From Chloroflexota bacterium (GTDB lineage Bacteria > Chloroflexota > Anaerolineae > DUEN01), in assembly GCA_013152435.1 (NCBI GenBank), contig JAADGJ010000059.1, forward strand, positions 24,558 through 88,557: a stretch of 64,000 nucleotides of DNA. Reading direction: 5' to 3'. This document shows positions 26,372 to 57,179 of the stretch, one piece after another. The notes beneath the pieces are model-generated. The model was not told where the DNA came from and did no database searches. It saw only the letters and a list, made by a program, of their open reading frames with translations. Within the stretch, counting starts at the first letter, position 1, and every line of letters starts with the position of its first letter. Both the position numbers and the translations under genes were made by a program.

Positions 26372-27520
26372 CTACGACGATGTATAGCGCCGACAGAATC
26401 GGTCGAACAGATCATCCAGCTCCTCGGGCGTGAGATCCCCATCGATCAGAAGGGCCAGACCCTCGGGGCGTAGCGCCTCGCACAGGGAGAGCACCTCGTC
26501 AGGGGGACAGATCACCAGGACGGATCGTCCCTTTTGTTGGATCTTGCGGAACATATCCACCCAGGCCAGGGCCGAAGGCGTGCCCGCGCCCGGGGTGAAC
26601 TGGATGGCCTGGATCTCGGGCACCGACAGCAGCGCGTCGATGTGGGTGGCCGCCCCGGGGCCGTCCAGATGGAAGACCGCCCGGCCGACGGTCGCCGCCT
26701 GGCGGGCGATGTCCGGCAGGAACAGGCGCTCGAACTCCCGTGGCCCGATCATGAAGTTGAAATCGCAGGCGGGGATCATGTAGGGGCGGTTCGACCACAG
26801 GCCGAGCCAGTGGATCAGCCCCGCGCCCCGCCCGAGGACGATCCGATACATCTCCGTGAAGACCTGTCGCCAGGCGGGGTAGATGGCATCGATGGCGGCG
26901 CGCACGCGGTCGGGCTGGTCGATGACGTCCATGCAGAGCTGGGTGGCTCCCCGCAGGTTGAGCAGCACGTCGGCCGATCCGCCCAGATCCGGCGTGCAGA
27001 CCAGGTAGCGTCCCACCGCATCCTTGGCCACGCGCTGCAACAGGTGGCGCAACAGCTTCCACCACGGATTGTCCTCATGGATGGTCCAATCGGGCGCGTT
27101 GGACCAGTCGTCGTTGATGAAGGCGTGCGTCCACCCCGTGTCGGCGCCGAACTCCAGCTTTCCTCCGAACATCCCGCTCAGCAGCACCGGCCCGAAGTCG
27201 GCGCGAATGTAGGGCAGCGCGTCGCCGACCCGGTGGAGCTGTCTCAGGTCCGCGTATTTGGCCTCGAACCAGGCGTCGGGGTCATGGAGCAGCTCCAGCC
27301 GTCGGGTGATGGGGCGTGAGGGATCGGTGTTGGCCGTCGCCATGAAGATGGGACGGTCCAGTAGCTCGTGGGCCCACCACGCCTCGAAGCGCCGGGCGAT
27401 GGTGGGGAAATCCGGACAGAACGCCAACGGCTCGGTGGCGATCCGCTGCAATGTGCTTGCCCAGTCCGACAGCTCCGCGATGGGCGTGATCGGCGGATAG
27501 GTGATCGGTGAAGCGCTCAT
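26372..27520 (-). CDS. hypothetical protein (possibly uroporphyrinogen decarboxylase / methyltransferase-like TIM barrel)
   Basis: 382-aa ORF in an operon with the membrane protein and cytochrome c genes. The fold assignment is weak. Confidence 0.5.
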   Translation of the reverse strand: MSASPITYPPITPIAELSDWASTLQRIATEPLAFCPDFPTIARRFEAWWAHELLDRPIFMATANTDPSRPITRRLELLHDPDAWFEAKYADLRQLHRVGDALPYIRADFGPVLLSGMFGGKLEFGADTGWTHAFINDDWSNAPDWTIHEDNPWWKLLRHLLQRVAKDAVGRYLVCTPDLGGSADVLLNLRGATQLCMDVIDQPDRVRAAIDAIYPAWRQVFTEMYRIVLGRGAGLIHWLGLWSNRPYMIPACDFNFMIGPREFERLFLPDIARQAATVGRAVFHLDGPGAATHIDALLSVPEIQAIQFTPGAGTPSALAWVDMFRKIQQKGRSVLVICPPDEVLSLCEALRPEGLALLIDGDLTPEELDDLFDRFCRRYTSS

Positions 27521-27533
27521 CCTTCCCCCTCCC

Positions 27534-29054
27534 TCAATCAGGCCAGCTCCAGGGCAGCGTGTTCTGGTAGACCCAGGCGATGGTGTGGAATGCCTGCGTG
27601 GCGATGAGCAGGATCCCGGCCTCGAGCTGCGCGCTGCGTTCGGGAAGCGCAGCCATCAGGCGATCCACCGTCAGCAGCGTGAGGGGGACCGCCGCGGGGG
27701 CGAAAAGATCCCAATCCCGTTGCCCCCCGTAGTCTGGGTTCCACGTCCAGATGAAGAGCAGGTAGAGGCCGGCTGCGATCGCCAGGAGGCGGGTCCACGT
27801 CGATCCGGTGCGCACGCGCGGCCAGGCGAGGGCCGCCAGCGCGACGAGCGTCCATAGCGCCATGGGCGCCGTCAACAGCTGCTCATTCAGCATATCGACC
27901 AGGTGTCCCCAGGAGAACATGGTGTAGTGTTCCCAGCGGGTGGTCGCGGCGAATAGGGGCACGAACCATTTGCCATCGCCTCCCCCCGGCCGATCCTCTC
28001 CGACCAGGTAGCGGAGGCCGTGCCCGCCCTGTTCCATCAGGAGGATAACACCGCCGGCCACGATCACCATCGGCAGGATGATCTGCCATGCGGCCGCGCC
28101 GTAGCGCCGCTCTTCGCCCTTTCGCGCCCAAACCCATCCCAGGTACAACAAAGAGGGAGCCAGCACGATGCTCGATGGGTGCAGCGCGTGGGTGAGCGCG
28201 AGCGCCGTCGCGGGCCAGAGGAGCGGGATCTGGTCTTGCAGGCAGCGCCACGCCAGCCACAGGTAGATCATCATCCCCAGCGTCATCAGGGAGTAGTTCT
28301 CCACGTATCCGAAGAACAGTTGTATGGTGCCCAGCGTGGCGACCAGGCCGAAGGTGATCGCCGCCGCGTACCGATCACGGGATGTTTCGATGGCTAGGCG
28401 TGCCAGCGCGTAGAGAAAGATCCCGCCCGCCAGCACACTGGTGAGCGCGTAGGGGGGCATCGCGTCGCTCCAGCCCCACAGTCGGTGGCCCAGCGCCCAC
28501 AGCTGCGCGTGCAGATAGACGGTCAGCGGCGCCTGCCAGGTGTACGTGAGATGGACATCGGGGTGCGCGATCGCCTGGCTGAGGATATACGCGTCGCCCC
28601 AGCGGGTGTGGACCAGGCGGAATCGCCAGAACAGTGGCAGGCCGATCAGGGCCAGCAGCAGAGGCAGTCGTCGGATGGTCACGCGAGCCAGGATGCGCTC
28701 GGCGAACGCCGCTGCCCGCCGCGTGATGGGAGGATAGCAGAGGAGAACTGCCAGCCCGGCCAGGGGCCAGCGCGCCCATGGCGGGAGATAGGTCGTCGGC
28801 CACAGGCCCCACGCGCGGGTCTCCCCAAGGGCGGGCGCCGATAGGTGCAGGGCGATGATGATCAACGCGATGGCGCGCAGACCGGTGAGGAGCCGAAGCG
28901 ATCGCTCCGAGATCCGGGAGACGTGATTGGATGACGAGTTAGCAGGCGTAGGCACCGTGTTGACCACCCCGCTGATGCGGTGGGCGCCGGGTTTGGAGGG
29001 CACGGCGATCAGTTCAGGTCGCCCTGGGGCCCTCGTTGCCACACGATGTGGCAT
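27534..29054 (-). CDS. polytopic integral membrane protein (GT-C / ArnT-like topology?), function unknown
   Basis: At least 10 hydrophobic segments. It overlaps the 3' end of the cytochrome gene by 46 nt, so the true start may be internal. Confidence 0.55.
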   Translation of the reverse strand: MPHRVATRAPGRPELIAVPSKPGAHRISGVVNTVPTPANSSSNHVSRISERSLRLLTGLRAIALIIIALHLSAPALGETRAWGLWPTTYLPPWARWPLAGLAVLLCYPPITRRAAAFAERILARVTIRRLPLLLALIGLPLFWRFRLVHTRWGDAYILSQAIAHPDVHLTYTWQAPLTVYLHAQLWALGHRLWGWSDAMPPYALTSVLAGGIFLYALARLAIETSRDRYAAAITFGLVATLGTIQLFFGYVENYSLMTLGMMIYLWLAWRCLQDQIPLLWPATALALTHALHPSSIVLAPSLLYLGWVWARKGEERRYGAAAWQIILPMVIVAGGVILLMEQGGHGLRYLVGEDRPGGGDGKWFVPLFAATTRWEHYTMFSWGHLVDMLNEQLLTAPMALWTLVALAALAWPRVRTGSTWTRLLAIAAGLYLLFIWTWNPDYGGQRDWDLFAPAAVPLTLLTVDRLMAALPERSAQLEAGILLIATQAFHTIAWVYQNTLPWSWPD

Positions 29055-29707
29055 CGATCACAGGCCGGGAAGACGATCTCCTCGGACAGAAAGTCCAGCT
29101 CCTGTGGGATATCCCGGTGGCTGACGTGACAATCGCTACAGTACAGGACGTTCGCGTCCGCGTCCGCCCGGACGACGGGGTCCGCATTGTACTCCGGCAG
29201 GTAGAAGTGGTAGTGATTCTCGAAGTCTTGGTCGTCGATGGCCTCTTCATGGCAGCGCGTGCAGCTCGCGTTGGGAAGCCAATCGAATCGTGAGCGCCCG
29301 ACCGCCTGTGTCCCCTCGTCACCGAGCAGCCATTTCACCGTGTTTCGGGCGCCCAGCGTCAGGGCGATCGCCCTGTGTCGCAGGCTTTGATCCCCCCGGT
29401 GGCAGGCCACGCAGTTGACGACGCCTCGTGTTTCCCCTCCGGGGGACTGATAGAACTCCTCCTCGTCGTCCTCTTCCTCCTCCCATTCGCCTCTGACGGT
29501 GACGGCGTAGTGGAAGGCCGCCAGGTTGGGGCTGTAGTCCGGCGTGGCCTGCTCGGCCTGATTGACGTAGCGCACCTCCGAGGGGCGATGGCAACTGGCA
29601 CAGAACCGGTTATCCTCCTCCAGATGGCTCACGACGATGGCTGGGATCAGCCCTGCCAGCAATCCTGCGATGAGGATGGCTAAGATCGTTCGTGCCCGGC
29701 CGGGCAT
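29009..29707 (-). CDS. membrane-anchored pentaheme c-type cytochrome (NapC/NirT/NrfH-like)
   Basis: N-terminal transmembrane helix. Five CxxCH motifs (CASCH, CVACH, CTRCH, CSDCH, CDRCH) plus an acidic EEEEDDEEE insert. Confidence 0.75.
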   Translation of the reverse strand: MPGRARTILAILIAGLLAGLIPAIVVSHLEEDNRFCASCHRPSEVRYVNQAEQATPDYSPNLAAFHYAVTVRGEWEEEEDDEEEFYQSPGGETRGVVNCVACHRGDQSLRHRAIALTLGARNTVKWLLGDEGTQAVGRSRFDWLPNASCTRCHEEAIDDQDFENHYHFYLPEYNADPVVRADADANVLYCSDCHVSHRDIPQELDFLSEEIVFPACDRCHIVWQRGPQGDLN

Positions 29708-33313: not shown

Positions 33314-36292
33314 TTACGGTGATTGGTGTTGGATAAACGGCATATAGATGCCGGGCACTCTGCGTGGGAGCGCCAGGACCAGCGCCGGATCGCCGAACAG
33401 GGTCATCGTGTGGAGTAGCGGGTCGTCTCCGACGGACGCGTACAACGTCAGCTTGGCCTTGACCGTGGCCGGCCCGATCTGGCGGATGCCATCGCTGAAG
33501 AGGGCGTGATAGAATCCTCTGGCCAGAATGTGCTCGATATGGGCCAGCCCGAGCCCGGTGGGCGACCAGTTGGCGATGGAGCCGCGCTCCGCCACGATGC
33601 TCATCGCCTCGGCGATGGAAAGGTAGCGGTTCTTCCAGGGGGCGATGAACGCGCCGTCGAAGCAGTTAAACGTCGTCACGAACGGATAGCGATCCTTGTT
33701 GTGCAGTTGGGACACGTAGGAGGAGCGCCAGACGGCCTCGTTGGCCCAGAGGTCCATGGCGCCATGTCCAGTCCAGGTGACGAACAGGACGCCGTGGTTG
33801 ATCGCACGCGTGATCGCTGAGGTCACCTCATCGCCGGTTGCGTGCGTTTGCCCCAGGTATGCCCGGGTGACGGAGATGTAGGAGGGGATCTCCCCGGTGA
33901 TGAGGGCATCGGAGAGGACCGGGAAGTTACCCGCCTCGTCCGGGTTGTCGGCGGCCATGAGGGCTCGCTGTTGCCATGGCGCTGGGGGCTGGCTGCTGTA
34001 GCTCAGGATCTTGTCCACGACTCCCTGGGCTTCCTCCAGGGTGTTGACGGCGATCCGGCCGATGATCATGTCCGGGAGTGGATCATCGCCGACGATGGTC
34101 ACGAAGGTGTTGTCGGCGGGCGCTTGCCCGAGCCAGGGATCCTCCCAGACCAGATAAGGGGGGATGCGGATGGGGATGGTGAGGTAGACCGTTGGGTTGT
34201 AGTTCCGCAGGTTCGCGTGGGCGTCCCCGAGCAGGGTCACGAAGAGAGGGGCCGGGGGCTGCCAGTTGGCGTATGCGTAGGCGAGGAAGTCTCGGATCGC
34301 CCGGGGATGCCGGATCCCATCATAGAACTCGTTGTAGATCTCCTGCACGTTCACGATGGCCACCCGCTGCCCTCGCGATCGATGGAACGCGGCCAGGCGT
34401 TCGGCCGCCGGGCGGAATTCCTCATCGATGATCAGGATGTGATCTGCGCCCTGTGTCGGGCTCCGAATGGCGGAAGGAGACACGGGCTGCGCTGTGTCGG
34501 GCGCTCGGATGGCCGACGCCGCCACGGCGAGGAAGCGATCTCCCGCCCCCGTGGTGAGCCCTGTGCGCAGCGTGTACCGGTTGGACTCGGTGATCACCTG
34601 AAAGGCGGTGATGCGCTTCGGCTCGCCGGGGTCGGTGATGTCGTATAGATACAGGTCTGGCTGGGTGAAATCGGTGATCTGGAAGTCCCAGGTGCCGGGC
34701 GTGTCCGCGTGAAAGAGGAGTGTGTCCTGGTACGCCCGGTATGCTCGCGAGTAGGACACCTCGATCCAGTTGGGGAACATGTCCTCGACGGCCACCCCGG
34801 GCAGTCGCACGAACTCCAGCGTGACCTGATTCACCCCGGAGACGAGCAATGTTGGAGAGACGGTGGCCGTGATCTGGATGGAGTGGGATCCGTCCCAGGT
34901 CACTTCTTGCACCTGCGTTCCGTTCAAGAAGACCCGGGTCAGGTGGTCTGGGTCGAGCTCCGGGGATTGGGAGCGGGCGCGCACTTCGACGGTCATCTGG
35001 ACGGTTTCGGTCACCGGGGCCGGGAATGGAACGGTGACGGTGTAGGTCTTTGACACGGATGTGGCCTTTCCTCCGACCACGACGCGCTCCCAGAACCAGG
35101 TGTCCTTCACATCGGGCGTCTTCGTCTCCAGGGTCCACCAGAAGGTGTTCTCCTCCGCGTGGATGGTGTCCCGGAACGAGGTGGGCGTGGCCTTCCCCTG
35201 GGGGGCTCCGTTCACGGTGACCATCCGCTTGCCGGACGCGCCCCCATAGCTTAGCCAGTAGATGTTCGTCCCCGTATACTGGGTGTCCTCGATGTCCCCG
35301 TGGAACGCCTGGCCGTAGAATTCGATGTAGTCCGCCGGATCCAGGCGGCCATCCTCCTCCCCGGATACCCAGATGGCGATCTCGCGCCCCTGGCTGCTGA
35401 TGGAGAGCGTGCGCGGGTCTAGCGTGTCGACCGGGAGTCCCCAGGAGGCGAGTTGATCGTAGGTGATCCGATAGATCCCATCGTGGTCAATTGGGATCTT
35501 GTAGCGCACGCTCGCCGCGGCCGCGGAGGCGCTGCGGGCGATCTCGGGCAGGGGGGCAGCCTCCGGCGGGACGCGCCAGAGGCGGGCCTGGTCGTAGTTG
35601 AGCAGGACGGCTCGTAGGATATCTTCCACCGGTTCGGGCTCTGCGATCTGTGTGGTCGGCGCCTGAGCGGGGATCCCCGTGAATCGGACGGAGAAGCGAA
35701 TCCGGGTGTGCACAATAAGCTGACGCCGCTGTGGATCGTATTGGAAGGGGGCGATCACCAGCCGGGCGAGCCGTTGGCTGCGCAGGAACCCCGCCGGCTC
35801 GATGGCCACCGGTGCCTGGGGATAGAGGCCGTCCTTCTGAGGGGGGAGAGCCTGGACCCTCGCGCCGGCCTCCTGTGCGGAAGCGAGCGCGTCGGAGAGG
35901 TCGCCACGGATCGGCTGCCAGGCGGCCACCGGTTGGTCGAGAGACCGGATCTCCTGCTGATCCTCGACGATGGAAACGATCGCTTTCCCACTCGGCGGGA
36001 GGCCGATCAGCGTCCCCGTGATCGGAAGGCGAGGGAACCCTGGCGGCGCGTTTGGAACCAGGCCGGGGGCGCTCACCTCGCTGGACTCCCCGATGGAGCT
36101 TACCCGATAGGGGGGCACGGTGAATTCTATCTCGAGGCCGTCGGCCCGTTGTTGAACGATCCGAAGCCCAGGGATCGATGTGTCCGATCCCTGGGCGCTG
36201 CCGGGCACGGCCAGGGATCCTAGGAGGAGGAACAGTCCGATCGCAATGGAGATCCCGATGGCAAATCTTCCGGTGACGATGATCCTTTTCAC
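33314..36292 (-). CDS. large secreted protein with C-terminal clan-CD cysteine peptidase domain (C25 gingipain-like)
   Basis: Signal peptide MKRIIVTGRFAIGISIAIGLFLLLGSLAVPGSAQG. His-Gly (TWTGHGAMD) followed by Cys (TTFNCFDGAF) resembles a C25-type catalytic dyad. The family call is tentative. Confidence 0.55.
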   Translation of the reverse strand: MKRIIVTGRFAIGISIAIGLFLLLGSLAVPGSAQGSDTSIPGLRIVQQRADGLEIEFTVPPYRVSSIGESSEVSAPGLVPNAPPGFPRLPITGTLIGLPPSGKAIVSIVEDQQEIRSLDQPVAAWQPIRGDLSDALASAQEAGARVQALPPQKDGLYPQAPVAIEPAGFLRSQRLARLVIAPFQYDPQRRQLIVHTRIRFSVRFTGIPAQAPTTQIAEPEPVEDILRAVLLNYDQARLWRVPPEAAPLPEIARSASAAAASVRYKIPIDHDGIYRITYDQLASWGLPVDTLDPRTLSISSQGREIAIWVSGEEDGRLDPADYIEFYGQAFHGDIEDTQYTGTNIYWLSYGGASGKRMVTVNGAPQGKATPTSFRDTIHAEENTFWWTLETKTPDVKDTWFWERVVVGGKATSVSKTYTVTVPFPAPVTETVQMTVEVRARSQSPELDPDHLTRVFLNGTQVQEVTWDGSHSIQITATVSPTLLVSGVNQVTLEFVRLPGVAVEDMFPNWIEVSYSRAYRAYQDTLLFHADTPGTWDFQITDFTQPDLYLYDITDPGEPKRITAFQVITESNRYTLRTGLTTGAGDRFLAVAASAIRAPDTAQPVSPSAIRSPTQGADHILIIDEEFRPAAERLAAFHRSRGQRVAIVNVQEIYNEFYDGIRHPRAIRDFLAYAYANWQPPAPLFVTLLGDAHANLRNYNPTVYLTIPIRIPPYLVWEDPWLGQAPADNTFVTIVGDDPLPDMIIGRIAVNTLEEAQGVVDKILSYSSQPPAPWQQRALMAADNPDEAGNFPVLSDALITGEIPSYISVTRAYLGQTHATGDEVTSAITRAINHGVLFVTWTGHGAMDLWANEAVWRSSYVSQLHNKDRYPFVTTFNCFDGAFIAPWKNRYLSIAEAMSIVAERGSIANWSPTGLGLAHIEHILARGFYHALFSDGIRQIGPATVKAKLTLYASVGDDPLLHTMTLFGDPALVLALPRRVPGIYMPFIQHQSP

Positions 36293-36469: not shown

Positions 36470-37420
36470 CTATTGTTGCTGGCCGGTGAGGTCTTCCAGG
36501 ATCGCCTCGCACACGGCTGGAAGATCATCGAGCGCGCGGGGGACGGCTATCCGGCGTGCGGGCACTCTGGTGACGAGACGGCAGTATTGTTCAAAGAGCC
36601 CCACTTGCAGTTCGGACTCGATCCATCGAATGCCGTAGGTGTTTCGCAGGAGCTCGGCTACCGCTTCGTGGGAGGGAAGGGCGGTGATGCGAGGCGCGTT
36701 CTGCCCGCCGGCGCCTGGGCGATCGAGTAGATAGATCGCACCGAGAGGGCAGGGGCGCCCGTGAAATGCGTGCCAGACGGGGACACGCCGTTTGTCCGTC
36801 CCTGGGAACACGCGGGGGAAATCCCCGGATGTGCCCAAGAGCCTGGCGATCGTCCCCGGCCGTAGGCGCAGAGCGGGGTATCCTGGCATCCCCCAACAGC
36901 GATCGTCTTTCATCTGGAGAGCGAGGATATCGTCCGTCAGAAGGGGAAACCCTTGTCGGAGGAAGGCGGCGGCTGTAGTGGACTTTCCCCCTCCCGTCCG
37001 GTCGATGAAGGCTATGGCATGGCCTTTGATCACCACCGCACTGGCGTGGAGAACGGGGACCCGCTGAAGGTGGAGGTGCAGCGCGAGCACGGGGCCCAGG
37101 ATGCACGCTCGAATATCGGCGTCCGTCGTCCCCACGATCGGGCGGCAACGGATCTCCTCGCCGCTTCGGGGGATGTGGAAGTCCCCGGTGTCGCTGTATC
37201 GCATGAGATAGGCCCGCGGGCTGTGGTAGACCCGATACAGGGGTGATCCGTTGATCTGCCGGTCGCTTTCATGAGCCAAGGAGAACTCCGGACCTATGCT
37301 GAATAGCGGTCCGGCAGGCAGCAGCTTCAGGTGAACGTGCGCATCGGACGTTCGGGCGGTGGGAAGCTCGGGAAAAGGGAGGTCGCTGAAGAGGTTCAGC
37401 CCATAGAGGGAATAGATCAT
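36470..37420 (-). CDS. HPr kinase C-domain-like serine kinase (lasso-peptide-associated precursor kinase type)
   Basis: P-loop IDRTGGGKSTTAAAF in an HprK-C-like fold. It is the last gene of the lasso operon. Confidence 0.75.
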   Translation of the reverse strand: MIYSLYGLNLFSDLPFPELPTARTSDAHVHLKLLPAGPLFSIGPEFSLAHESDRQINGSPLYRVYHSPRAYLMRYSDTGDFHIPRSGEEIRCRPIVGTTDADIRACILGPVLALHLHLQRVPVLHASAVVIKGHAIAFIDRTGGGKSTTAAAFLRQGFPLLTDDILALQMKDDRCWGMPGYPALRLRPGTIARLLGTSGDFPRVFPGTDKRRVPVWHAFHGRPCPLGAIYLLDRPGAGGQNAPRITALPSHEAVAELLRNTYGIRWIESELQVGLFEQYCRLVTRVPARRIAVPRALDDLPAVCEAILEDLTGQQQ

Positions 37421-37473
37421 AGGACGGGATCATCTGCCACGGCCTGGATTTAACCGGGGGGCGACCGGGCTTA

Positions 37474-37626
37474 CCCTATCGCCCCCCTATGGCCATATCG
37501 GAAGATTAGGTCAGGACTTGCCAAGAGCGGCGTCGGTGGCTCCTGCAGCTCCACCTTCCGTGAGCTCTTGAAGCGTTCCGTATTCGACGATCTGAGGAGG
37601 CGAGTACGATCTACGCCTATTATCAT
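37474..37626 (-). CDS. 51-aa small ORF between cyclase and kinase (possible but unconvincing precursor peptide)
   Basis: Peptide MIIGVDRTRLLRSSNTERFKSSRKVELQEPPTPLLASPDLIFRYGHRGAIG. It is the only ORF in the 245-bp spacer and has a weak AGGT RBS. It lacks a Thr(-2)/Gly-Ala-Ser-Cys(+1)/Asp-Glu(+7..9) lasso core signature and a C-terminal Ser. Confidence 0.25.
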
Positions 37627-37665
37627 GACGTGATTCTACCTGCTTTGTATCCGATCGGTCGCCCA

Positions 37666-39603
37666 TCATTTCCTCCTTACAGAAGGTGAGTGGTTGGTGG
37701 AATCAGCGCCAGGATCAACTTGGAGCCTCCCGCGATGGTTCAGACGGTTAAGCCAGATCTCCGCGATGAGAGCATACCATATAACCCAGGAGTCGGCCAT
37801 TTCACCGCGGCGGAATCGCTCGTATTGCTCCCGGAGCTTCTCTCCATTGACATAACCCCGCCTGGCCAGCTCTGGTGAGCGGAGTAGTTGGTGGATCGTT
37901 TCCACACCGCGCTCCCTCAATCCACGCGAGACCAATGGGTCGGCCAGGACCTTAGCCCGAGCCGTCCGTATCTGGTCTGGAAGACGGCCTTGCATGGCCT
38001 GGCGGAGCAAAGGTTTCTTCTCCCCTGTGGGTGTGAGAAACTGCTCCAGAGGGATCGCAAATGCGAATTCTACCAGCTGCTTGTCCAGGAAAGGATGCCG
38101 GGCTTCCAGGGAATGCAGGCTCATCATCTGATCGATGAAGCTGAGCCAGGATTGCAATCCAGGGCCGGTAATCCAGATCAGGCTTTGCGCTCGGGCCGCT
38201 TTAACGCGATGTAGCCCCAGTCCCTCCTTTTGTCGTTTGGCGAGTCCGTGCTTGCGCTCGAACTTCGGGTCCAACCAGACAGGTGGTAGATCCCATGCAT
38301 TGGGGCGAATCCGGCGCCGCATGGGAACGGGGAGCAGGCGGAAGATGCCTGCTCGCAATCGCAATGGGGGAAGCCGTTGGTATCGCCTCCAGTAGTGCCA
38401 GATATCCACCCCAAAGCGGATGGGCCGCAGCAGTTGCAGGTGATGGAAATATGCCAGGGGGGATTCAGCGCAAACGTCATCTCCCCCATATCCCGTCAGG
38501 ACGAATCGGTGTCCCCGGGACCGCACGATATCCAGAGCCGTATCCCATAGTAGATATTGGATTGCCGGCGTCGGCTCATCGAATTCGAGCAGGGTGCGGG
38601 GATAGTCCCCCAAGGGCCAGCAGTGATCCGCCGGGATGTAGGTGGTGCGGAGGCCGTATTGGCGGGCGATGGCCTCGATGTTCTCCCTCTCGTCGCATTC
38701 CGGAATCTCATCGAACACAAAGGAGAAGGCCTCGACCCTTCCTGGATCTCCGTGGGACCCGGGGGGATCCCCGACCGCAAGGCTGGCGATGGATGTCGAG
38801 TCCAGGCCTCCGCTCATCATGATGCCGAATGGGCTTTTTCCACGGGTGCGACGGAGCACAGCTTCCGTCAGAAGATCCCGGAAGTGTTCAGCGTAGCTCT
38901 CCTCCTTCTCATAACGGATCGGCTGCACATCGTCCAGTGACCAATACCGGCGGTGCTGGGTGCTCGTGCTCCTGATGATCAGGACATGTGCCGGTGGAAG
39001 CCGCTGGATGCCTCGGTAGGTCGTCTCCTCAGGATGGCTCACGCATCCGGAGATCAGGAAGTCGCCTAGGGCCGCCTCATTGAGCTCGTTCGGGACGTCG
39101 GGGTGCTGTAGGAGTTGTTTGATCTCCGAGGCGCATACCAGCACCTGTGGGGCTTGATAGTAGACTAGAGGGCGGATCCCCAGATGATCCCGGCCGAGCA
39201 CGAGCGTTTGCCGTTGCTGATCCCATAGGGCAAAGGCGAAGTCCCCCAGCAGATGCCGGGGAAAATCGATCCCCCAGCGCTCATAGGCTGCCAGGATCAG
39301 ATCCGCGTCCGTCGGCTCTGGCCGGACATAGGAACCCAACAGGGATCGGAGCAGCTCCTTTCGATTGTAAATGCGGGCATCCGCTGTAATCCAACAGGTG
39401 CGTGTACCGTTTGACCTGGTTTGGTGCTCTCGGGGGAGCTCAGGGGTGGAGTGCAGAGCGAGATGAGCCAGCCCCACATGCCCGTGGATCCAGTATCGGA
39501 TCCCGTCTGGGCCGCGATGCGCGGCAGCCTCCGCCATCCTACGCAAGGTCTTTGGGTCGACCGGACTCCCATCCAGGTTTACGATCGCGCAGATGCCGCT
39601 CAT
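37666..39603 (-). CDS. asparagine synthetase-like lasso peptide cyclase (C protein)
   Basis: N-terminal MSGICAIVNLDG (Ntn-amidotransferase-like) and PP-loop MMSGGLDSTS. Its start overlaps the B2 stop as ATGA. Confidence 0.8.
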   Translation of the reverse strand: MSGICAIVNLDGSPVDPKTLRRMAEAAAHRGPDGIRYWIHGHVGLAHLALHSTPELPREHQTRSNGTRTCWITADARIYNRKELLRSLLGSYVRPEPTDADLILAAYERWGIDFPRHLLGDFAFALWDQQRQTLVLGRDHLGIRPLVYYQAPQVLVCASEIKQLLQHPDVPNELNEAALGDFLISGCVSHPEETTYRGIQRLPPAHVLIIRSTSTQHRRYWSLDDVQPIRYEKEESYAEHFRDLLTEAVLRRTRGKSPFGIMMSGGLDSTSIASLAVGDPPGSHGDPGRVEAFSFVFDEIPECDERENIEAIARQYGLRTTYIPADHCWPLGDYPRTLLEFDEPTPAIQYLLWDTALDIVRSRGHRFVLTGYGGDDVCAESPLAYFHHLQLLRPIRFGVDIWHYWRRYQRLPPLRLRAGIFRLLPVPMRRRIRPNAWDLPPVWLDPKFERKHGLAKRQKEGLGLHRVKAARAQSLIWITGPGLQSWLSFIDQMMSLHSLEARHPFLDKQLVEFAFAIPLEQFLTPTGEKKPLLRQAMQGRLPDQIRTARAKVLADPLVSRGLRERGVETIHQLLRSPELARRGYVNGEKLREQYERFRRGEMADSWVIWYALIAEIWLNRLNHRGRLQVDPGADSTNHSPSVRRK

Positions 39604-40046
39604 TTGTGGATCGCTTGGGTCCCCAGGGAGGCGAAGTTGCTGATAGCCGAGTCCGGTTCTCCCACGGGCTGGCCGGCGTATTCCACCCACGCGTGAGCGA
39701 GCAGCGTGTCGTCCTCCTTACGCACCCCGATGCGCAGCTCGGTGACGATGCCCTGGCGGCCTAACAGCCATTGCAGGGCCAAGGCCCGTCGCAGACAGCT
39801 CATCGGATACAGGTGATGGCGCGCTGCGATGTCCACCAGACGTTGCACCTGGTGTATGATCGCGGTGTCCTCCTCCGCTGACGGACGGTGCCGGCTTTCC
39901 CGATGCCTTGCCGTCCGCTGTTGAATCATAGAAAACGGCAGCAAACGCAGCCCGAGATCGATCGTCAGCAGCAAGATCCACGCCTGGGCCAGGATCCACT
40001 TCTCGTGGCGAGAGAGGCGGAGCAGACTCTGTAGCTTACGTCTCAT
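39600..40046 (-). CDS. transglutaminase-like leader peptidase (lasso B2 protein)
   Basis: Cys-His contexts YPMSCLRRALAL and LLAHAWVEY. Confidence 0.8.
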   Translation of the reverse strand: MRRKLQSLLRLSRHEKWILAQAWILLLTIDLGLRLLPFSMIQQRTARHRESRHRPSAEEDTAIIHQVQRLVDIAARHHLYPMSCLRRALALQWLLGRQGIVTELRIGVRKEDDTLLAHAWVEYAGQPVGEPDSAISNFASLGTQAIHK

Positions 40047-40317
40047 GGATCTCCAGAAGTTGCCGGGAGGTCAGTTCCTCAACGAAGCGGCACAAATCTT
40101 GTTGGAGCTGATCTTCCGCGACGTCATACTCTTCCAACAGCGCCCGAAAGGCGGGCTCGACCTGCCCATGTTCGGTCAGCAGCGTCCACATCCGGGTGCC
40201 GACCTCGTCCAGGCCGTAGTACTTGCCCGTTTGGAGGTTCAGAAGCACGGATTCTCCTCCTAGATCCCGGAACAGTACATCTTTGCCGGCCCGGACTCGC
40301 GTGTCTAAAGTGATCAT
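40036..40317 (-). CDS. PqqD-family RiPP recognition element (lasso B1 protein)
   Basis: 93 aa with LFRDLGGESVLLNLQTGKYYGLDEVGTRMW, a typical PqqD/RRE. It is the first gene of the operon. Confidence 0.8.
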   Translation of the reverse strand: MITLDTRVRAGKDVLFRDLGGESVLLNLQTGKYYGLDEVGTRMWTLLTEHGQVEPAFRALLEEYDVAEDQLQQDLCRFVEELTSRQLLEIHET

Positions 40318-40375
40318 GATCGTTTATCAATCGACGCTCATTACGGACTGCGATTTTTTGTAGTGTTGTTAACTG

Positions 40376-40404
40376 ATATTAACTCAATGATTCAATCTTG
40401 GCAA
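40376..40404 (-). promoter_or_regulatory. sigma70-type promoter TTGCCA-17-TAATAT (minus strand) for the lasso operon
   Basis: Exact 17-nt spacer; the -10 box lies about 58 nt upstream of the B1 ATG. Confidence 0.45.
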
Positions 40405-40419
40405 GGTATGGTGCTTCCC

Positions 40420-40441
40420 TTTCTTTACAGTTTCTTTACAG
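40420..40441 (-). promoter_or_regulatory. perfect tandem direct repeat CTGTAAAGAAA x2 immediately upstream of the -35 box
   Basis: Plus strand reads tttctttacag tttctttacag. It lies between the stop of the Crp-family gene and the lasso promoter. Confidence 0.4.
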
Positions 40442-40461
40442 TTGCTATCGCGCCCCTGTCA

Positions 40462-41130
40462 TCATCCCTCTGCAATGGCTTGCAGTCCCTCGGGATCCAG
40501 GATTGTGATCCGCTTGCGGCCGATATCGATCAGTCCCTGGGCTTTGAGCTCGTTCAATACCTGGGTGGCCGTCTCTCGATAGGTGCCCACCGTCTCCGCC
40601 AGGTCCTGATGGGTCAGCCCGGTGATCACGTTCCCCTGCTCCTCCGCCAGTCGTAGCAGCAGCGATGCCAGCCGGGCGGGGATGCCCTTGAAGGCCATGT
40701 CTTCCAACCTCTCCTCCACCGCCCGCAGCCGTCGTCCCGTGATCTCCAACACCCGCAACGCCACCTGAGGCTTGTCCAGGATCAAGCGTTCCAGGTCCGT
40801 ACGGCTCATGACACAGATCTGACAGTCCTCAATCGCCTCGGCGAAGGTGTTGTGCATCCGTTGGCCGATCAAGGCCATCTCCCCGAAGATGCTGCCAGGG
40901 CCTAACGTGGCGATCACTAATTTCTTGCCCTCTGGCGATATACGATAGAGCTGGACCCGCCCTTTCTTCAGAATGAAAAGGACCTCCCCCACCTCTTCTG
41001 GCCGGTAGAAGACCTTGCCCTTCTCGACGGAGCTTACCGTGGTGATGCGGTCCAGCTCCTCCATCTCCTTAGGGCTTAAATCCTGGAAGATCTCCATATC
41101 TCGTAAGTAGGCTTGCTTGTCCAGGTCCAT
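40462..41130 (-). CDS. Crp/Fnr-family transcriptional regulator (cNMP-binding domain + HTH)
   Basis: cNMP-binding beta-roll ([18 protein letters not shown]) and C-terminal HTH ([21 protein letters not shown]). Strong GAGGAGGGAGG RBS. Confidence 0.85.
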
Positions 41131-46057: not shown

Positions 46058-47284
46058 ATGGCACAACCCAACGAGATCGACTATAAATCCTTTTTGCGAA
46101 CCCTCGGGCGCCCTATTGTCGTCCTGCTGACGCTTCAACTGATGGGGGGCATGATCCTCGCCCCGCATCTCACCTTTTTCCCGCTTTACCTGAAGGACTT
46201 GGGCCACTCCACCATTGTGATCGCCAACATCGTCGCCGCCAGGCAGGTGGCGGGGTTGATCGCGTCCCTGGTCGGTGGCACCCTGAGCGACTCGGTGGGG
46301 CGGAAATGGACGCTGCTATTGGGGAACGTGGGCTATCTGGTGTCCAGCTTCGCGTTTCTCGTCCTTTCGCCGGGTTGGATCGGACTTCTATGGATCATCG
46401 GCGGGTTTGGGCAGGGCTTGCACACCCTGGGCGGGCAGAGTTATCTGATGGACACTGCTGCCCCCCAGTTTCTCGGCCTGACCTCGGCTTTGTACAACTG
46501 GGGCTATACGCTCGGCGGCGTGCTCAGCAGCCCTATCGCGGGCTGGATCCTCGATCGTTGGGACTATGGCGTCTTTGCCAGAGTGTTGGTCGTGTTCTCC
46601 ATTGGCACGGTGGCGCTCAACCAATTCGTCTTGCCACGCTCCCCCGTGGAGCACCGGACGCAGGCTCCCGGCCTGAGTCGCTTCTTCGGCTATGGCGATA
46701 TCGCCCCTCGTCCCACCGTGCTGATTCTGGCCACGCTGCGCTTCCTGCCCACGTTCTACTATGCGATCATGCTGGTCCTGATCCCCTTGCTGCTGGACGC
46801 CGCCGGGGCCAGCAAGACGATCATCGCCTGGTACGCCACGATCAGCTGGATAGCGGCCTCCCTCGCTCAGGCCGTCGTGGGATATGCCGCGGACCGGTGG
46901 AACCCCATCCCGGCGACGGCGATGACCTTTGCCGCGCTGCTCGCCAGCATGCTCGGCATCGGGCTCCGATCTTCCAGCCTGTGGGTCGTGTTCACTTTTG
47001 GGACCGTGGGCATCGCCGCTGCGTGGTCGCTGTCGACCCTGTTGCCCAGCCTTGTCGCTCTGGCCACCGTCCCGGAGGAGCGCGGGCGCGTCTTGGGATT
47101 CATCCATTTGTGGTGGAACCTCGCCATGATCATCGGGTCGATGGCCAGCGGGGCGCTGTTCGAGATCGCCTCCGGATTGCCCTTCTTGGTCGCCGGCATC
47201 GCCAACATCGGCTCCCTGGCTCTGCTGTTCGTCTATCATCGCCTCGTCGCACCGTCGCGTGCCTTGCCTTCCTCCCCCCGCTAA
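46058..47284 (+). CDS. MFS-family transporter
   Basis: 12 predicted transmembrane segments and the MFS loop motif GTLSDSVGRKWTLL. Confidence 0.8.
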   Translation: MAQPNEIDYKSFLRTLGRPIVVLLTLQLMGGMILAPHLTFFPLYLKDLGHSTIVIANIVAARQVAGLIASLVGGTLSDSVGRKWTLLLGNVGYLVSSFAFLVLSPGWIGLLWIIGGFGQGLHTLGGQSYLMDTAAPQFLGLTSALYNWGYTLGGVLSSPIAGWILDRWDYGVFARVLVVFSIGTVALNQFVLPRSPVEHRTQAPGLSRFFGYGDIAPRPTVLILATLRFLPTFYYAIMLVLIPLLLDAAGASKTIIAWYATISWIAASLAQAVVGYAADRWNPIPATAMTFAALLASMLGIGLRSSSLWVVFTFGTVGIAAAWSLSTLLPSLVALATVPEERGRVLGFIHLWWNLAMIIGSMASGALFEIASGLPFLVAGIANIGSLALLFVYHRLVAPSRALPSSPR

Positions 47285-49272
47285 CGCTCTGTTTGTTGAT
47301 CGCGTTCGCCAGGGGGCAACAGGTCCACGCGGCGGATCTCCCAGAGGCGATCGTGCCGTAAGGCCTCCTCCTGCCGGATTTCCGTCCCCTGTGTGTCCGG
47401 TTCCAGCTGCCAGATACTGCCCGGAGGGCCGGCGAACGTGAGTCGGAATGGCCACGCGGGGGTGCCGGGTTGCTTCTGAACCATGAGTCGGTAGGCATCC
47501 CGCGTGACGACCCCCTCGGGCAGCCGATATATGAGCCGTACGACATGCGCCGTCCCCGGCTTCATCACGAAATATCCGGCGATCTCCCACGTTTCCTTCT
47601 CGCCAGGTTCCTCCTGCACGCTCCCCGGGTCCAATCCTTCCGCCTCCAGCAGCCGGGAGCCGTCTGGCACGTACACGCGCAGGTAGTTCCAATAACAGCG
47701 GCGTGTCATGTCTGCATATGTGCGGCCGTACTCCGGCCGGTGGACACAAGAGGGCAGCTCGATCTGGACGGGATGCGTGTAGGTGAGCGTCAGCCGGGCG
47801 GTCCAGCCGTTCTCTTGCCAGGTGACGGCGTAGTCCATCTGACGGGCGACGACCGCGTTGACCTTGTTATATCCCACGTTCGTGTCGAACACGGCCAGAT
47901 AGTCCTGCTCTCCCGGGTGCAGGCCGCCGTCCCATCCCAACGTCGTGATCACCGCCTGGGCCTCCGGGTGGTTCACGTAGATCAGGATGTGCTTCTCACG
48001 GGCCGCCTTCCAAAACGCGTATCCCAGCCGTTGGAGATCCACGTCTCCACCGCTCAGCCGCTGGACGGCCGCCTGCACGAGGGCGGGCATGAAGTCCTTT
48101 CGCCGCCGCCACCATTCCCTGGAATCTTGCTCAATGGTCAGTCCCTCGGCCGGCTGTTCCCAGGCCGCCTTGATCTGGGACAGGACGTTCTTCCTCGTGA
48201 GGGGTTTCTCGGCACCGGGGACGTGGAGTGGCTCCAGCGCGCCGACGAGCTCCTGCACGGCGATCAGGTCGAAGGCGATGACGCCGTGGGTAGCCACGCC
48301 CTGATCCAGCTCGTACAGCGTCTGCATGATGCGAGCGCTGGTGGGGAAATCCGGGGACCAGTTGGCGTCCCGCAGGAAGAGGAGTTCGGCGCCCATGTAG
48401 CGGCGTAACGGCTCCGGCGCGGGTGGGTGGGGCTGGTCCAGATTGTCGACGGCGTAGCTGTCCCGGAACGTGAGATCCACGATCCGTCCGTCGATCAGGC
48501 GAACCAATCCGGCCCCGCTGATGAACCCGCCGGTGGCCCGTAGCTCGTCGCTGTTCTGGGCGATGATCAGGTAGGCCCGCTCGCCCTGGGCGCCCAGGAG
48601 GTCTGGCAGGTGGGGCAGGAGATCCACCAAGGGCCGTCCCGCGGCGAGAAGATCCCGGCCCCGTCGCAGGCGATCTCCCCAGACGGGGGGGAGGCGTCCC
48701 GGATCGACCCGTTGGAGCGCCGCGCTGGCCTGGTCCAGATGGGCTCCCACCGAGCGCCAGGCCGGCGCTCCGGCCTCCAGATAGGGCAACACCCGCGCCA
48801 GGATGTCGACCTGCGCGGCGTCGCCTGGGGAATCGCCCGGCCGCCTCAGCGCTTCCAGCATGGGCAGCGCCTGTTCCGCCCCGATACGGCCGGCGCTGAC
48901 CAACGCGATCCCCGCCTCCAGCAGATCGGGGGCGATGCTGATCTCATAGCCATAGCGGGGCAGCGGCTCCAGGCGCCGCATGAGCGGGAAAAAGGGCTCG
49001 ATCTCGTCCCGCAGGCTGGTGAGCTCGGCCTCCATGGTGCCCAGAAGCGGAGGCAGATCTTTCCACTGCGCCGGGTCCTGAGGCTGTGCGAGCGCCTGGC
49101 GAGCCGTCGACTTCAGCTGTTGAGCGGTGGCCCATATGGCCCGGGCGTGGGTGTAGACGCGATAAGCCTTGAACCCGGCCCAGCCGAGGGAGATCAGGAT
49201 GATACTCGTGAGCGCCAGGATCAGGAATCGGCGATAAGGTGTGCCTCGTCGTGATGGCAGAGAGCGTGTCAT
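47281..49272 (-). CDS. N-terminally membrane-anchored hypothetical protein (DUF4012-like?)
   Basis: 663 aa with a single N-terminal transmembrane helix (FLILALTSIILISLGWAGF) and a large extracytoplasmic domain. It is the last gene of the long minus-strand envelope operon. Confidence 0.55.
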   Translation of the reverse strand: MTRSLPSRRGTPYRRFLILALTSIILISLGWAGFKAYRVYTHARAIWATAQQLKSTARQALAQPQDPAQWKDLPPLLGTMEAELTSLRDEIEPFFPLMRRLEPLPRYGYEISIAPDLLEAGIALVSAGRIGAEQALPMLEALRRPGDSPGDAAQVDILARVLPYLEAGAPAWRSVGAHLDQASAALQRVDPGRLPPVWGDRLRRGRDLLAAGRPLVDLLPHLPDLLGAQGERAYLIIAQNSDELRATGGFISGAGLVRLIDGRIVDLTFRDSYAVDNLDQPHPPAPEPLRRYMGAELLFLRDANWSPDFPTSARIMQTLYELDQGVATHGVIAFDLIAVQELVGALEPLHVPGAEKPLTRKNVLSQIKAAWEQPAEGLTIEQDSREWWRRRKDFMPALVQAAVQRLSGGDVDLQRLGYAFWKAAREKHILIYVNHPEAQAVITTLGWDGGLHPGEQDYLAVFDTNVGYNKVNAVVARQMDYAVTWQENGWTARLTLTYTHPVQIELPSCVHRPEYGRTYADMTRRCYWNYLRVYVPDGSRLLEAEGLDPGSVQEEPGEKETWEIAGYFVMKPGTAHVVRLIYRLPEGVVTRDAYRLMVQKQPGTPAWPFRLTFAGPPGSIWQLEPDTQGTEIRQEEALRHDRLWEIRRVDLLPPGERDQQTER

Positions 49273-49282
49273 CAGTACAGCC

Positions 49283-50848
49283 CTACGGGGTGTGCGGTTT
49301 CAGCAAATACAGTGGACCCTTGCGGATGGCGCTGTAGCGGGTGAGCGGATCCACCATCAGCTCCGCCAGGTAGACCGGCCGGACGCGCACGTTTTCATCC
49401 ACCAGCGCGCCGAAATCGGGCGGGGTGGATCGCCCCCCGACCAGCACCACGTCGGGATGCCATCTTGCCACCGTTTCCCGGTACCAGTCAAAGGCGTACA
49501 GGTTGGCGTTGAGGATGGCCACGTCGGGGCGCAGGCCCAGGCCGTAGCGGAAATACCACAGGGAGAACGTCGGCTGATCGGTGGCCGTGATGATGAGAGC
49601 ATCATCCTGGGCCGTGGCCAGCGCCTGTCGCCCGAAGTCCACGGCCTCTCGATCTTCCCCCAGATCTTCGGCCGCCCAGTGCATCCACACCTGCCCGGCC
49701 GGCAGCAGGGCGAGCGCGAACAGAAGGGCCCCGGCGACCGCGCGAGATCGGCCCGGCCAGCGCTCTCGGACCCATTGGATCGCCTCGGCCCCCGTCACCC
49801 AGGCGCCCAGCGCGATCGCGGGCGCCAGCGAGAGGTACACGGGGCTCAGGTAGACGTAGGAGTCCGCCGTGCTGTAGCCCAGCGCGTATACGCTGAACAC
49901 GGCGACGTTCAGGATCGTCATGCTCAGCAGGCCGCGGTGGTTCGCCTCCGCCCACCACAGCCCAAACAGCGCCAGTGCCAGCCCGGGGAGCGTCAGGTTC
50001 TGCAGCAGGAGGGCTGCCCAGCCGGATAGCCGCCACGGAAGCCAGGCGAGGGGGAAGGCGAAGACGAGGGGGCGATATGCCTGTCCGGAGACCAGCCACC
50101 AGAGCCGGGGGAGATCACGAGGGTTCCCCCAGTTCACCGGCGGATCCCGATGAGCGGCCCATGGCAGGTACAGATACGTCAACAGGCCGATCGCGCAGCC
50201 GATGAGGAGCCCCATGAGGGCGCGTCGGGTCAGGCGCGTCCCGCTCAGCCGGATATATGCGAACATCCCCGGGATGAGCAACGCCAGCGAGAGGTGATTC
50301 CCCAGACCCAGGCCGAACAGCAGCCCCACCGCAAGTCCCTGTCTGCCGCGCACGACACCGCCTCCTAGACGGAGCGCCAAGTAGATGAGGGCGGCCGTGA
50401 AGAGCGCGTGGAGCCCGTAGACCTCCGTGATGACCGCCTGGGACCATAGGGTGGGGGCGAAGCCGATGAGCAAGGCCACGATCGCTGCAAGGGGGCGTGC
50501 GATCGCTTGAGGCGCTTGGGCCTCTCGCAGGGATCGCTCACCGGCCAGCGCGATGAAGACGAGCGCGAGGCTGGTGGTGAGCGCGGAGAAGAGATTGCCC
50601 AGGAAGGCAGGAGGGCCGCCTGGCAACGCGAGCATCCCCCGCAGGAGGAGCATGTAGGTGGGATAGCCGGGGGGATGGGGAACGCCGCCGGTCAGTGCAG
50701 CGGTCAACAGATCGCCGCCGTCGGCGCCGTTGTGGGCCCAGGTCAGGTCCGGCGCCAGCGTGGCCCGGTAGACGGCGAAGGCGATGAGCGCTGGCCCGAG
50801 GGGCCACAAGCGGGTGATGGATCTGGGGCGGCCGCGTGTCACTTGCAT
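49283..50848 (-). CDS. DUF2723 / protein-O-mannosyltransferase-like GT-C fold membrane protein
   Basis: N-terminal AVYRATLAPDLTWAHNGADGGDLLTAALTGGVPHPPGYP motif typical of DUF2723/PMT-like proteins; 521 aa with many transmembrane segments. Confidence 0.6.
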   Translation of the reverse strand: MQVTRGRPRSITRLWPLGPALIAFAVYRATLAPDLTWAHNGADGGDLLTAALTGGVPHPPGYPTYMLLLRGMLALPGGPPAFLGNLFSALTTSLALVFIALAGERSLREAQAPQAIARPLAAIVALLIGFAPTLWSQAVITEVYGLHALFTAALIYLALRLGGGVVRGRQGLAVGLLFGLGLGNHLSLALLIPGMFAYIRLSGTRLTRRALMGLLIGCAIGLLTYLYLPWAAHRDPPVNWGNPRDLPRLWWLVSGQAYRPLVFAFPLAWLPWRLSGWAALLLQNLTLPGLALALFGLWWAEANHRGLLSMTILNVAVFSVYALGYSTADSYVYLSPVYLSLAPAIALGAWVTGAEAIQWVRERWPGRSRAVAGALLFALALLPAGQVWMHWAAEDLGEDREAVDFGRQALATAQDDALIITATDQPTFSLWYFRYGLGLRPDVAILNANLYAFDWYRETVARWHPDVVLVGGRSTPPDFGALVDENVRVRPVYLAELMVDPLTRYSAIRKGPLYLLKPHTP

Positions 50849-51771
50849 CGCGATGTGGGCACATGAGCGCCGGTAGGCGGGAGATAGGCCGGCGGGAGGG
50901 GGATGCTGACCCCAGTGGACAGGCGGAGCCCCTCTGTGGTGGCGACCTCGATGATGTTGTCGATGATCTCACCGGGAGGCGCATCGGGTGCGACGATCCC
51001 CATGATGGTGAGCTCGACCGAGGAGCCCGCGGCCACGGTGCCTAGAGCGATCTCTACGATCTGCCCTGTCTGCTCCGATGTCCCCTGGGGTGCCTGGACC
51101 TCCCCCGGGGTGATCACGGGCGGAAGCTCATCACGTACCGTGACGCCTTCGGCGTCGATGGCACCTGTGTTGCTTATGGTAAGCTGGAAGGCCACCTCAC
51201 GGCCGGGAATGGCCCAGGGCGGATCCGTTATGAGGTCCAACGCCAGTTCGGGGAGGGGCTGCGGCGTGTCCGTGGGCGTGGGTGTGGGCGTCGGCGGCGG
51301 GGCCTCGGTGAGGACGGGGATCGCCGAGATGTCCCCTTGCGTTTGGGTCAAAGGCGCGTAGAGCCAGCCCGTGCGTCCTTCATACTCGATGGCCCACCAG
51401 TCTCCCTCGGCATTCTGCCCGAGGATAGGATAGGGCTGCCCTGCGTTCGCGGTCCCGATGATCGCTCGCTCCGTGCTGGGGCCCTCGCGCACGTTCATGT
51501 CCCCTCGGGGGATCGCGACCGGCGCGGCGGGCATGGGCGATGTCTCCGGGGATGAGGGGATAGGCGTGTCCGTGGGCGTAGGCGTGGGGTTTGCGGGCGT
51601 CGCAGTGGGCAGAGGTTCCGGCTTGTGTTGCTTGGTCGGCGTAGGCGTGGGAACCGTTTGCGCGGGGACGCCCGGCTGAGCCCAGGCCGGCGCGCCGGGG
51701 CCGATCGTCGCGAGCAGGATCAGGATCAACAGCGCAGCACCCGTGCTTACAAGCTCTCTCGCCTTGATCAT
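50839..51771 (-). CDS. secreted SH3b-domain + DUF11 (conserved repeat) protein with Pro/Thr-rich linkers
   Basis: Signal peptide, (TPTP)n linkers, SH3b-like block (GDMNVREGPSTER..GWLYAPL) and DUF11-like block (AFQLTISNTG..VTV). Confidence 0.6.
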   Translation of the reverse strand: MIKARELVSTGAALLILILLATIGPGAPAWAQPGVPAQTVPTPTPTKQHKPEPLPTATPANPTPTPTDTPIPSSPETSPMPAAPVAIPRGDMNVREGPSTERAIIGTANAGQPYPILGQNAEGDWWAIEYEGRTGWLYAPLTQTQGDISAIPVLTEAPPPTPTPTPTDTPQPLPELALDLITDPPWAIPGREVAFQLTISNTGAIDAEGVTVRDELPPVITPGEVQAPQGTSEQTGQIVEIALGTVAAGSSVELTIMGIVAPDAPPGEIIDNIIEVATTEGLRLSTGVSIPLPPAYLPPTGAHVPTSRCK

Positions 51772-51787
51772 ATCACAGCCTCACAGG

Positions 51788-53631: not shown

Positions 53632-53772
53632 GACTTACCTCGATGAAGAAGTGGTGATGACAAAGCAAATGTGGGGCACCCCGCGCGCCGGCGCCCCACA
53701 TCGCGTTTTTATATTTCGAAATCGGTAGAAATCGGGGTTGCCCGTTTAGTAGCACTCACCTCTTGGCCAACA

Positions 53773-56122: not shown

Positions 56123-56124
56123 CC

Positions 56125-57174: not shown

Positions 57175-57179
57175 GCTGA

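Follow-up and report, generated by a model that had tools for sequence, protein, structure and literature searches.

A 64,000-nucleotide stretch of contig JAADGJ010000059.1, from the metagenome-assembled genome (MAG) of a Chloroflexota bacterium, was analysed over its whole length (called here the window) and contains a locus which is very probably a class II lasso peptide operon, complete and self-contained, of the kinase-associated (paeninodin/pseudomycoidin-type) group, with the gene order B1-B2-C-A-K. The analysis establishes its genes and their family assignments, the precursor gene A together with its conservation in relatives, and the fold and catalytic residues of the kinase. A preliminary description of the same DNA had recognised the biosynthetic enzymes but considered that their substrate was missing, and the main value of the present study is to correct this point: an orphan lasso machinery without substrate does not exist here. 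What is left is a new member, from Chloroflexota and so far uncharacterised, of a class of natural products that was already known. We regard the locus as ordinary, because its precursor is present, canonical and annotated, and because clusters devoid of an exporter are common in the family. The genes of the operon are the following, with positions counted from the first letter of the window:

40036-40317, minus strand: B1, PqqD-type recognition element (RRE) of ribosomally synthesised peptides with post-translational modifications (RiPPs), predicted leader-peptide binder (PF05402 63.4 bits, cutoff 23.4)
39600-40046, minus strand: B2, transglutaminase-like leader peptidase (NF033537 lasso_biosyn_B2 90.2 bits, cutoff 33; PF13471 Transglut_core3 84.3 bits)
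37666-39603, minus strand: C, asparagine-synthetase-like lasso cyclase, or macrolactam synthetase (PF00733 Asn_synthase 164.6 bits; GATase_7 91.8 bits)
37511-37669, minus strand: A, lasso precursor gene between C and K, 52 amino acids from the ATG at 37669 or 51 amino acids from the ATG at 37666
Within A, minus strand, from the list of open reading frames (ORFs) and the sequence: leader up to 37556; core GGAAGATDAALGKS at 37514-37555; stop codon at 37511-37513
36470-37420, minus strand: K, P-loop kinase of HprK/PEPCK fold, predicted precursor serine kinase (family profile, predicted fold, catalytic residues)

The precursor gene is found in the 245-nucleotide interval between C and the kinase gene, where the ORF 37511-37669 (minus strand) is translated as MMGDRSDTKQVESRHDNRRRSYSPPQIVEYGTLQELTEGGAAGATDAALGKS, with a leader/core junction reading ...YSPPQIVEYGTLQELTE|GGAAGATDAALGKS. 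It presents a YxxPx(L/I)x3Gx5TxG leader, Thr at position -2, Gly1, Asp8 and a C-terminal Ser, the junction itself being TE|GGAAGATD; recognition by the RRE is known to depend on YxxP and on Thr(-2) (PMC6784204). The NCBIfam model NF033521 lasso_leader_L3 matches its residues 22-40 with 24.6 bits, for a cutoff of 19. The preliminary description had stated that no ORF near the cluster showed the canonical precursor pattern, whereas this one possesses every feature of that pattern. The first ATG of A overlaps the stop codon of C (ATGA), and the two possible starts follow each other as ATGATG; because an AGGAGG Shine-Dalgarno sequence ends 5 nucleotides ahead of the second one (37666), the 51-amino-acid form MGDRSDTKQVESRHDNRRRSYSPPQIVEYGTLQELTE|GGAAGATDAALGKS is the most likely product. 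The 52-amino-acid form is named by NCBI 'lasso RiPP family leader peptide-containing protein' (NOZ27900.1), on a Chloroflexi contig of 126,251 bp that also carries the kinase (locus tag GXP39_07575) and the cyclase (GXP39_07585). A leader-motif scan of the whole window returned no second precursor, save one spurious antisense match inside the kinase gene. The core has 14 residues and is rich in Gly and Ala, with a tail, AALGKS, in which only Leu11 and Lys13 have sizeable side chains.

This precursor is conserved in relatives. The Chloroflexota MAG Dive96_bin10.82 (loci L001/L004), whose kinase is 88% identical to that of the window, retains the order C-A-K followed by the gene of the C25 peptidase, and there a 51-amino-acid precursor gene has been called, MGDRPDAKQVGSRHGDGRKSYSSPQIVEYGTLQELTEGGAAGGSDGALGKS, with the junction ...YSSPQIVEYGTLQELTE|GGAAGGSDGALGKS. 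The leader motif (identical even at the nucleotide level) and the residues G1, D8 and S14 are retained, D8 and A10 being kept through synonymous codon changes, and the core substitutions A6G, T7S and A9G are all conservative. Both precursors finish with Lys-Ser (...GKS). In a third relative, L084, the precursor is identical to that of the window. Another ORF of 51 amino acids, 37474-37626 (37471-37626 as listed), which had been put forward as a candidate precursor, was rejected: it lies in the wrong frame of the true gene and has no leader motif, and in L004 an indel of 5 nucleotides immediately past the precursor stop codon falls inside it.

At a larger scale, 185,579 species genomes were scanned with a six-sequence kinase alignment (a set of 17 sequences was too diverse), which gave 80 loci spanning Chloroflexota, Acidobacteriota, Cyanobacteria, Gemmatimonadota, Proteobacteria and Paenibacillus. 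In nearly all of them C and B1/B2 adjoin the kinase, as seen by tblastn with the window proteins, and a leader-motif search revealed a YxxPxL-type precursor in 59 of the 81 loci (the 80 and the window). Since most of these show the order C-A-K, a precursor located between C and K is the norm of the family. The Paenibacillus loci are organised as C-A-K-B1-B2N-D, with precursors ending in ...DPTS, which is the published psm arrangement (PMC6993621). Some loci are more elaborate: an Acidobacteriota MAG (L002/L005) presents around the kinase two precursors, a PrmA-like methyltransferase, an NTP_transf_5 nucleotidyltransferase and an ATP-binding cassette (ABC) exporter, and a Longimonas MAG (L070) has three precursors, each ending in ...DCS or ...TDCS.

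Concerning the enzymes, the ORF listing from 33 to 46 kb gives on the minus strand the order of the preliminary description, namely a Crp regulator, B1, B2, C and the HprK-like gene; Pfam and NCBIfam scans bear out the identities of these five adjacent genes, and their coordinates the overlaps, which amount to 11 nucleotides for B1/B2 and to ATGA for B2/C. In a search of the PDB, the best solved relative of B1 is the lasso RRE TbiB1 (5v1u, E 1.8e-13). The translation of C contains the SGGLDS PP-loop, and its top NCBIfam model is NF033535, the lasso isopeptide-forming cyclase (454.7 bits), true AsnB reaching 263 bits. As a side observation, the GC content at third codon positions of the lasso genes (36470-40317) is 0.67-0.77, against 0.79-0.88 in surrounding genes, a difference that would fit with the cluster having been acquired horizontally.

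The kinase was characterized through its profile, its predicted structure and its catalytic residues. Compared to the PDB, the profile of its family recovers HPr(Ser) kinases at the top (3tqf with 1.3e-5, then 1jb1, 2qmh and 1ko7) and phosphoenolpyruvate (PEP) carboxykinases next; the AlphaFold model, with a predicted local distance difference test (pLDDT) of 90.9 and a predicted template modelling score (pTM) of 0.90, also gives PEPCK and HprK/P as top Foldseek matches in the PDB (E ~1e-7). H125 (in LHASAVV), K146 (in GKS) and D164 (the second Asp of TDD) are invariant across the 17-sequence alignment and D163 in the six-sequence one. Against the kinase of a C-A-K-B1-B2N-D cluster in Paenibacillus taichungensis, the protein shows 33% identity (E 7e-35), and the His, Lys and Asp-Asp are in register. 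This His-Lys-Asp-Asp motif is essential in lasso kinases and required in ThcoK and PadeK (PMC9266682), and PsmK requires its Asp-Asp pair D158/D159 (PMC6993621); the correspondence of H125/K146/D163/D164 with the ThcoK numbering is presumptive. For paeninodin, ThcoA and SyanA, the kinases PadeK, ThcoK and SyanK act on the linear precursor, where they transfer phosphate to the C-terminal Ser, in some cases more than once (PMC9266682, PMC8498205), and for pseudomycoidin also the linear precursor is the kinase substrate and the C-terminal Ser the site (PMC6993621). Among the 571 relatives found at E<=1e-5, several are annotated as PF27840 (ScmC) or Hpr_kinase_C. A Pfam scan of the window kinase returned no Hpr_kinase_N domain, and because it stays under the Pfam threshold of Hpr_kinase_C we do not consider it a bona fide HprK/P; it is a distant HprK-related (ScmC-like) kinase. 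The family models matched by B1, B2 and C, the profile and fold of the kinase, and its likeness to the Paenibacillus kinase all agree with the kinase-linked (paeninodin-type) gene set that had been recognised at the outset.

From the characterised homologues we infer in which order the enzymes act, which residue is phosphorylated, that the product is threaded and how it is released from the cell. In this scenario, the 51-amino-acid precursor would be translated from an ATG overlapping the C stop codon, and B1 would bind its YxxPxI...G leader. The HprK-like kinase would phosphorylate the linear precursor at its last residue, Ser14, which follows a Lys, B2 would cleave after Thr(-2)-Glu(-1), and C would form the Gly1-Asp8 isopeptide bond (macrolactam) around a tail of six residues. 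The expected product would be a lasso peptide of 14 residues, phosphorylated once or several times, with a calculated [M+H]+ of 1128.56 if it is left unmodified and of 1208.53 if it bears a single phosphate. A core of such small size, with easily predicted masses, could be a convenient minimal substrate for studies of lasso threading and C-terminal phosphorylation.

The exporter deserves a separate comment. A scan for Walker A and LSGGQ motifs and tblastn with the ABC exporter of a lasso cluster (E<=0.01) detected no ABC ATPase in the 64-kb window, and no ABC domain appeared in Pfam scans of the 20 genes flanking the cluster on both sides, which are unrelated to it; the genes between 1 and 23 kb of the window were covered by the motif scan and by tblastn. 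The preliminary description had presented the missing exporter as an unusual feature, and it held that a standard precursor accompanied by an ABC transporter would make the cluster an ordinary one; the precursor was found, the transporter was not found in the window, and the absence itself stands but not its unusual character. Indeed, among 50 related kinase-containing loci with a C gene and at least 6 kb on both sides, an ABC gene is missing within 8 kb in 19, and a close homologue of a lasso-type exporter occurs in just 11, so the absence is real but ordinary. According to a review, the presence of ABC transporters in lasso clusters is seen "often (though not always)" (PMC6784204), and the PsmD exporter is dispensable for synthesis (PMC6993621). 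Homologues of the PsmN-like nucleotidyltransferase and of the PrmA-like methyltransferase were also absent from the window by tblastn, though both are present in many relatives. The genes around the operon that come into consideration are the following:

33314-36292, minus strand: Peptidase_C25 protein of 992 amino acids with a propeptide, directly downstream of the lasso operon (Pfam 270.5 bits)
40462-41130, minus strand: Crp/Fnr-family regulator (cNMP_binding 75.7 bits, HTH_Crp_2 74.5 bits)
46058-47284, plus strand: major facilitator superfamily (MFS) gene, 5 kb upstream on the opposite strand, nearest transporter (Pfam scan of the flanks)

Several points weigh against the assignment of the locus to a complete kinase-linked lasso operon. 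The phosphorylation, the topology and the activity of the product of this cluster are all deduced from homologues. For C (454.7 bits, cutoff 525) and for B1 (67.7 bits with NF033536 lasso_PqqD, cutoff 80), the scores are under the strict cutoffs of the NCBIfam 'exception' models, which were built on other phyla; B1, B2 and C do pass family models, B2 being over its NCBIfam cutoff and B1 over that of PF05402. Single-sequence hidden Markov models are weak for the kinase, with 17.7 bits for Hpr_kinase_C (cutoff 33.3) and 30 bits for TIGR04352 HprK_rel_A (cutoff 200). Only 13 of the 61 predicted cores located beside kinase homologues end in Ser. No immunity gene or exporter was identified for the cluster. 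Finally, a stably threaded lasso is not assured, because the core is small and Gly/Ala-rich and the AALGKS tail has no aromatic residue or large plug. The weak kinase scores, along with the fact that most cores beside kinase homologues in other phyla have no terminal Ser, leave some room for an HprK-like protein that would not be the tailoring kinase of this peptide, being inactive, devoted to another substrate or involved in regulation or immunity, with an unmodified lasso as product; the scarcity of terminal Ser also means that the role of the kinase across the family is not uniform or not understood. We nevertheless find this improbable given that the catalytic His, Lys and Asp-Asp are invariant in a confident HprK/PEPCK fold, that the close linkage of the gene with C and A holds across phyla, that the precursor and its orthologue both end in Lys-Ser, and that the homologues PadeK, ThcoK, SyanK and PsmK are proven precursor Ser kinases. 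The cores of the survey may even indicate what such kinases recognise: a [KR][ST] pair is present within the last seven residues of 27 of the 61 cores, against 6.3±2.2 in shuffles, none of 2000 shuffles reaching 27, a statistic that kinship between the loci inflates. Examples are ...NKTN, ...NRTGF, ...NKSVA and ...LTKSG, to be compared with GKS in the window core. With so few cores ending in Ser, the 'C-terminal Ser' rule looks looser in the wider family than in Firmicutes; the survey suggests that this published rule for lasso kinases fails to describe most non-Firmicute clusters, whose kinases may target a Ser or Thr that follows a basic residue near the C-terminus rather than a strictly terminal Ser.

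Among the other explanations, the one to which we give the largest share, still clearly a minority one, is that the enzymes make a branched-cyclic (unthreaded) or transiently threaded peptide, in which any lock would come from Lys13 and the phosphate(s) of Ser14. Beside the paucity of sizeable side chains in the tail (Leu11 and Lys13 only), it is favoured by pseudomycoidin, for which the tail mutant L21F was needed to obtain a clearly threaded lasso (PMC6993621), and by caulosegnin I, whose 8-residue ring unthreads when heated (PMC13352647). However, modest side chains can lock small 8-membered rings, and natural lasso peptides of 13-15 residues exist. Huascopeptin, for instance, is a natural lasso peptide of 13 residues. 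The combined proposal that our core ranks among the smallest lassos, with the (poly)phosphate of Ser14 and Lys13 acting as a steric lock, and that the kinases of the family recognise a site composed of a basic residue plus Ser/Thr, appears rather unlikely when taken as a whole; the very small Gly/Ala-rich core and the family-wide [KR][ST] enrichment with few terminal Ser are only mildly novel leads. A larger system, in which the C25 peptidase would process or degrade the peptide, the Crp protein would regulate the cluster and the MFS protein would export the product, seems doubtful to us: the Crp gene, the cluster and the C25 gene are collinear on one strand, an order kept in L004 and L084, and the MFS gene is 5 kb away, but the synteny is confined to near-identical genomes, the other related loci have no Crp or MFS homologue near the kinase and C25 gives a single weak and distant match there, and the genes of an aminotransferase and of a hybrid histidine kinase separate the cluster from the MFS gene, which is read from the other strand. 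Hardly any credit can still be given to the conclusion of the preliminary description that no cognate precursor lies nearby and that the product is encoded in trans or derives from a non-canonical core. A canonical precursor which passes NF033521 stands between C and K, is conserved in relatives and is annotated by NCBI; moreover, C-A-K is the usual order in the kinase-linked family, and the empty spacer between Crp and B1 is not where precursor genes of this family sit. The operon with its own precursor and a tailoring kinase thus keeps our preference.

Comparison with known systems places this operon among its relatives. With pade, the paeninodin cluster from Paenibacillus dendritiformis C454, and with the ThcoK and SyanK systems (Zhu et al. 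2016, as summarised in PMC9266682 and PMC8498205), whose kinases act on the linear precursor, the window shares the split B1/B2, the C cyclase, an HprK-like kinase with His-Lys-Asp-Asp and a precursor ending in Ser. It differs from the paeninodin type by the absence of an ABC exporter (D gene), by the order B1-B2-C-A-K instead of C-A-K-B1-B2-D, by a YxxPxL-type leader, and by a much shorter core (14 amino acids), Gly/Ala-rich and with a predicted Gly1-Asp8 ring; in addition, its host is an uncultured Chloroflexota organism. The pseudomycoidin (psm) cluster of Bacillus pseudomycoides DSM 12442 (PMC6993621) has the same C-A-K core arrangement, the D158/D159 metal site of PsmK corresponds to D163/D164 of the window kinase, and the tails of pseudomycoidin and of the window core are alike in having no large plug residue; psm additionally encodes PsmN, a nucleotidyltransferase, and PsmD, an exporter, whereas the window has a homologue of neither. 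HprK/P and PEP carboxykinase share with the window kinase the P-loop fold and the H...GxGKS...DD layout of the active site. Unlike HprK/P, the window kinase has a different, beta-rich N-terminal domain in the AlphaFold model and stands in the context of a RiPP cluster rather than of a phosphotransferase system; it is a member of the ScmC/HprK-related group, PF27840 being annotated on homologues. From the TbiB1/TbiA system of Thermobaculum terrenum (5v1u/5v1v) only the RRE was compared, TbiB1 being the closest solved relative of B1. In the published TbiB1 structure the leader is reportedly recognised through a YxxPxL motif, and to our knowledge no kinase is associated with this system.

Two non-coding elements accompany the operon:

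40376-40404, minus strand: sigma-70-like promoter match TTGCCA-17-TAATAT in the Crp-B1 spacer (consensus match only)
37456-37487, minus strand: GC-rich hairpin with a 10-bp stem, 23 nucleotides past the precursor stop codon (RNA fold)

The 144-nucleotide spacer between Crp and B1 contains no minus-strand ORF of at least 20 amino acids, in line with the preliminary description, which had found it closed. The promoter match is weak evidence, because three such sites occur in the region for 2.1 expected by chance. The hairpin belongs to the segment 37421-37515 (minus strand), whose folding energy is -44.2 kcal/mol, at z -3.3, a stability that no shuffle out of 200 attained. It is a candidate mRNA stabiliser or partial terminator, which may raise the ratio of precursor to enzymes. 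The stem is identical in L004, and because this sole comparison is too close to show covariation, the function attributed to the hairpin stays conjectural.

The neighbourhood of the operon provides a few additional observations. The next gene downstream had been described as a large clan-CD peptidase, as the match to Peptidase_C25 confirms; this protein resembles the type IX secretion sortase PorU, although with 282 bits it is under the cutoff of NF033707 (420), and since its synteny does not extend past near-identical relatives it probably has nothing to do with the cluster. The Crp gene is syntenic only in the near-identical L084, and by tblastn none of the other 80 related loci has a homologue of it next to the kinase; it lies upstream and may regulate the cluster. 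Crp and the C25 peptidase were therefore rejected as conserved cluster members, their synteny being confined to near-identical genomes, and so was the MFS gene 46058-47284 as the exporter, as it is not conserved with the cluster in related loci. Upstream of Crp, the segment 41269-44548 (minus strand) encodes an aminotransferase of class I/II, similar to 8-amino-7-oxononanoate synthase, as well as a hybrid response-regulator/PAS/histidine kinase, which are also syntenic in L084, where they adjoin a DDE transposase. On the other side of the operon, an MtrC/MtrF-like multihaem cytochrome gene (29009-29707, minus strand) is followed by 27534-29054 (506 amino acids) and 26372-27520 (382 amino acids), both without Pfam match, and the whole segment 26372-29707 may be a module of extracellular electron transfer. 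Farther away, a cell-surface/exopolysaccharide block at 47281-59816 (minus strand) gathers DUF4012, a TMEM260-like glycosyltransferase, DUF11/SH3 and CARDB proteins, a Wzz/GNVR tyrosine-kinase-type protein and a sortase, together with an ORF of 907 amino acids combining GT2 and Bac_transf, whose start is uncertain since it overlaps another candidate ORF.

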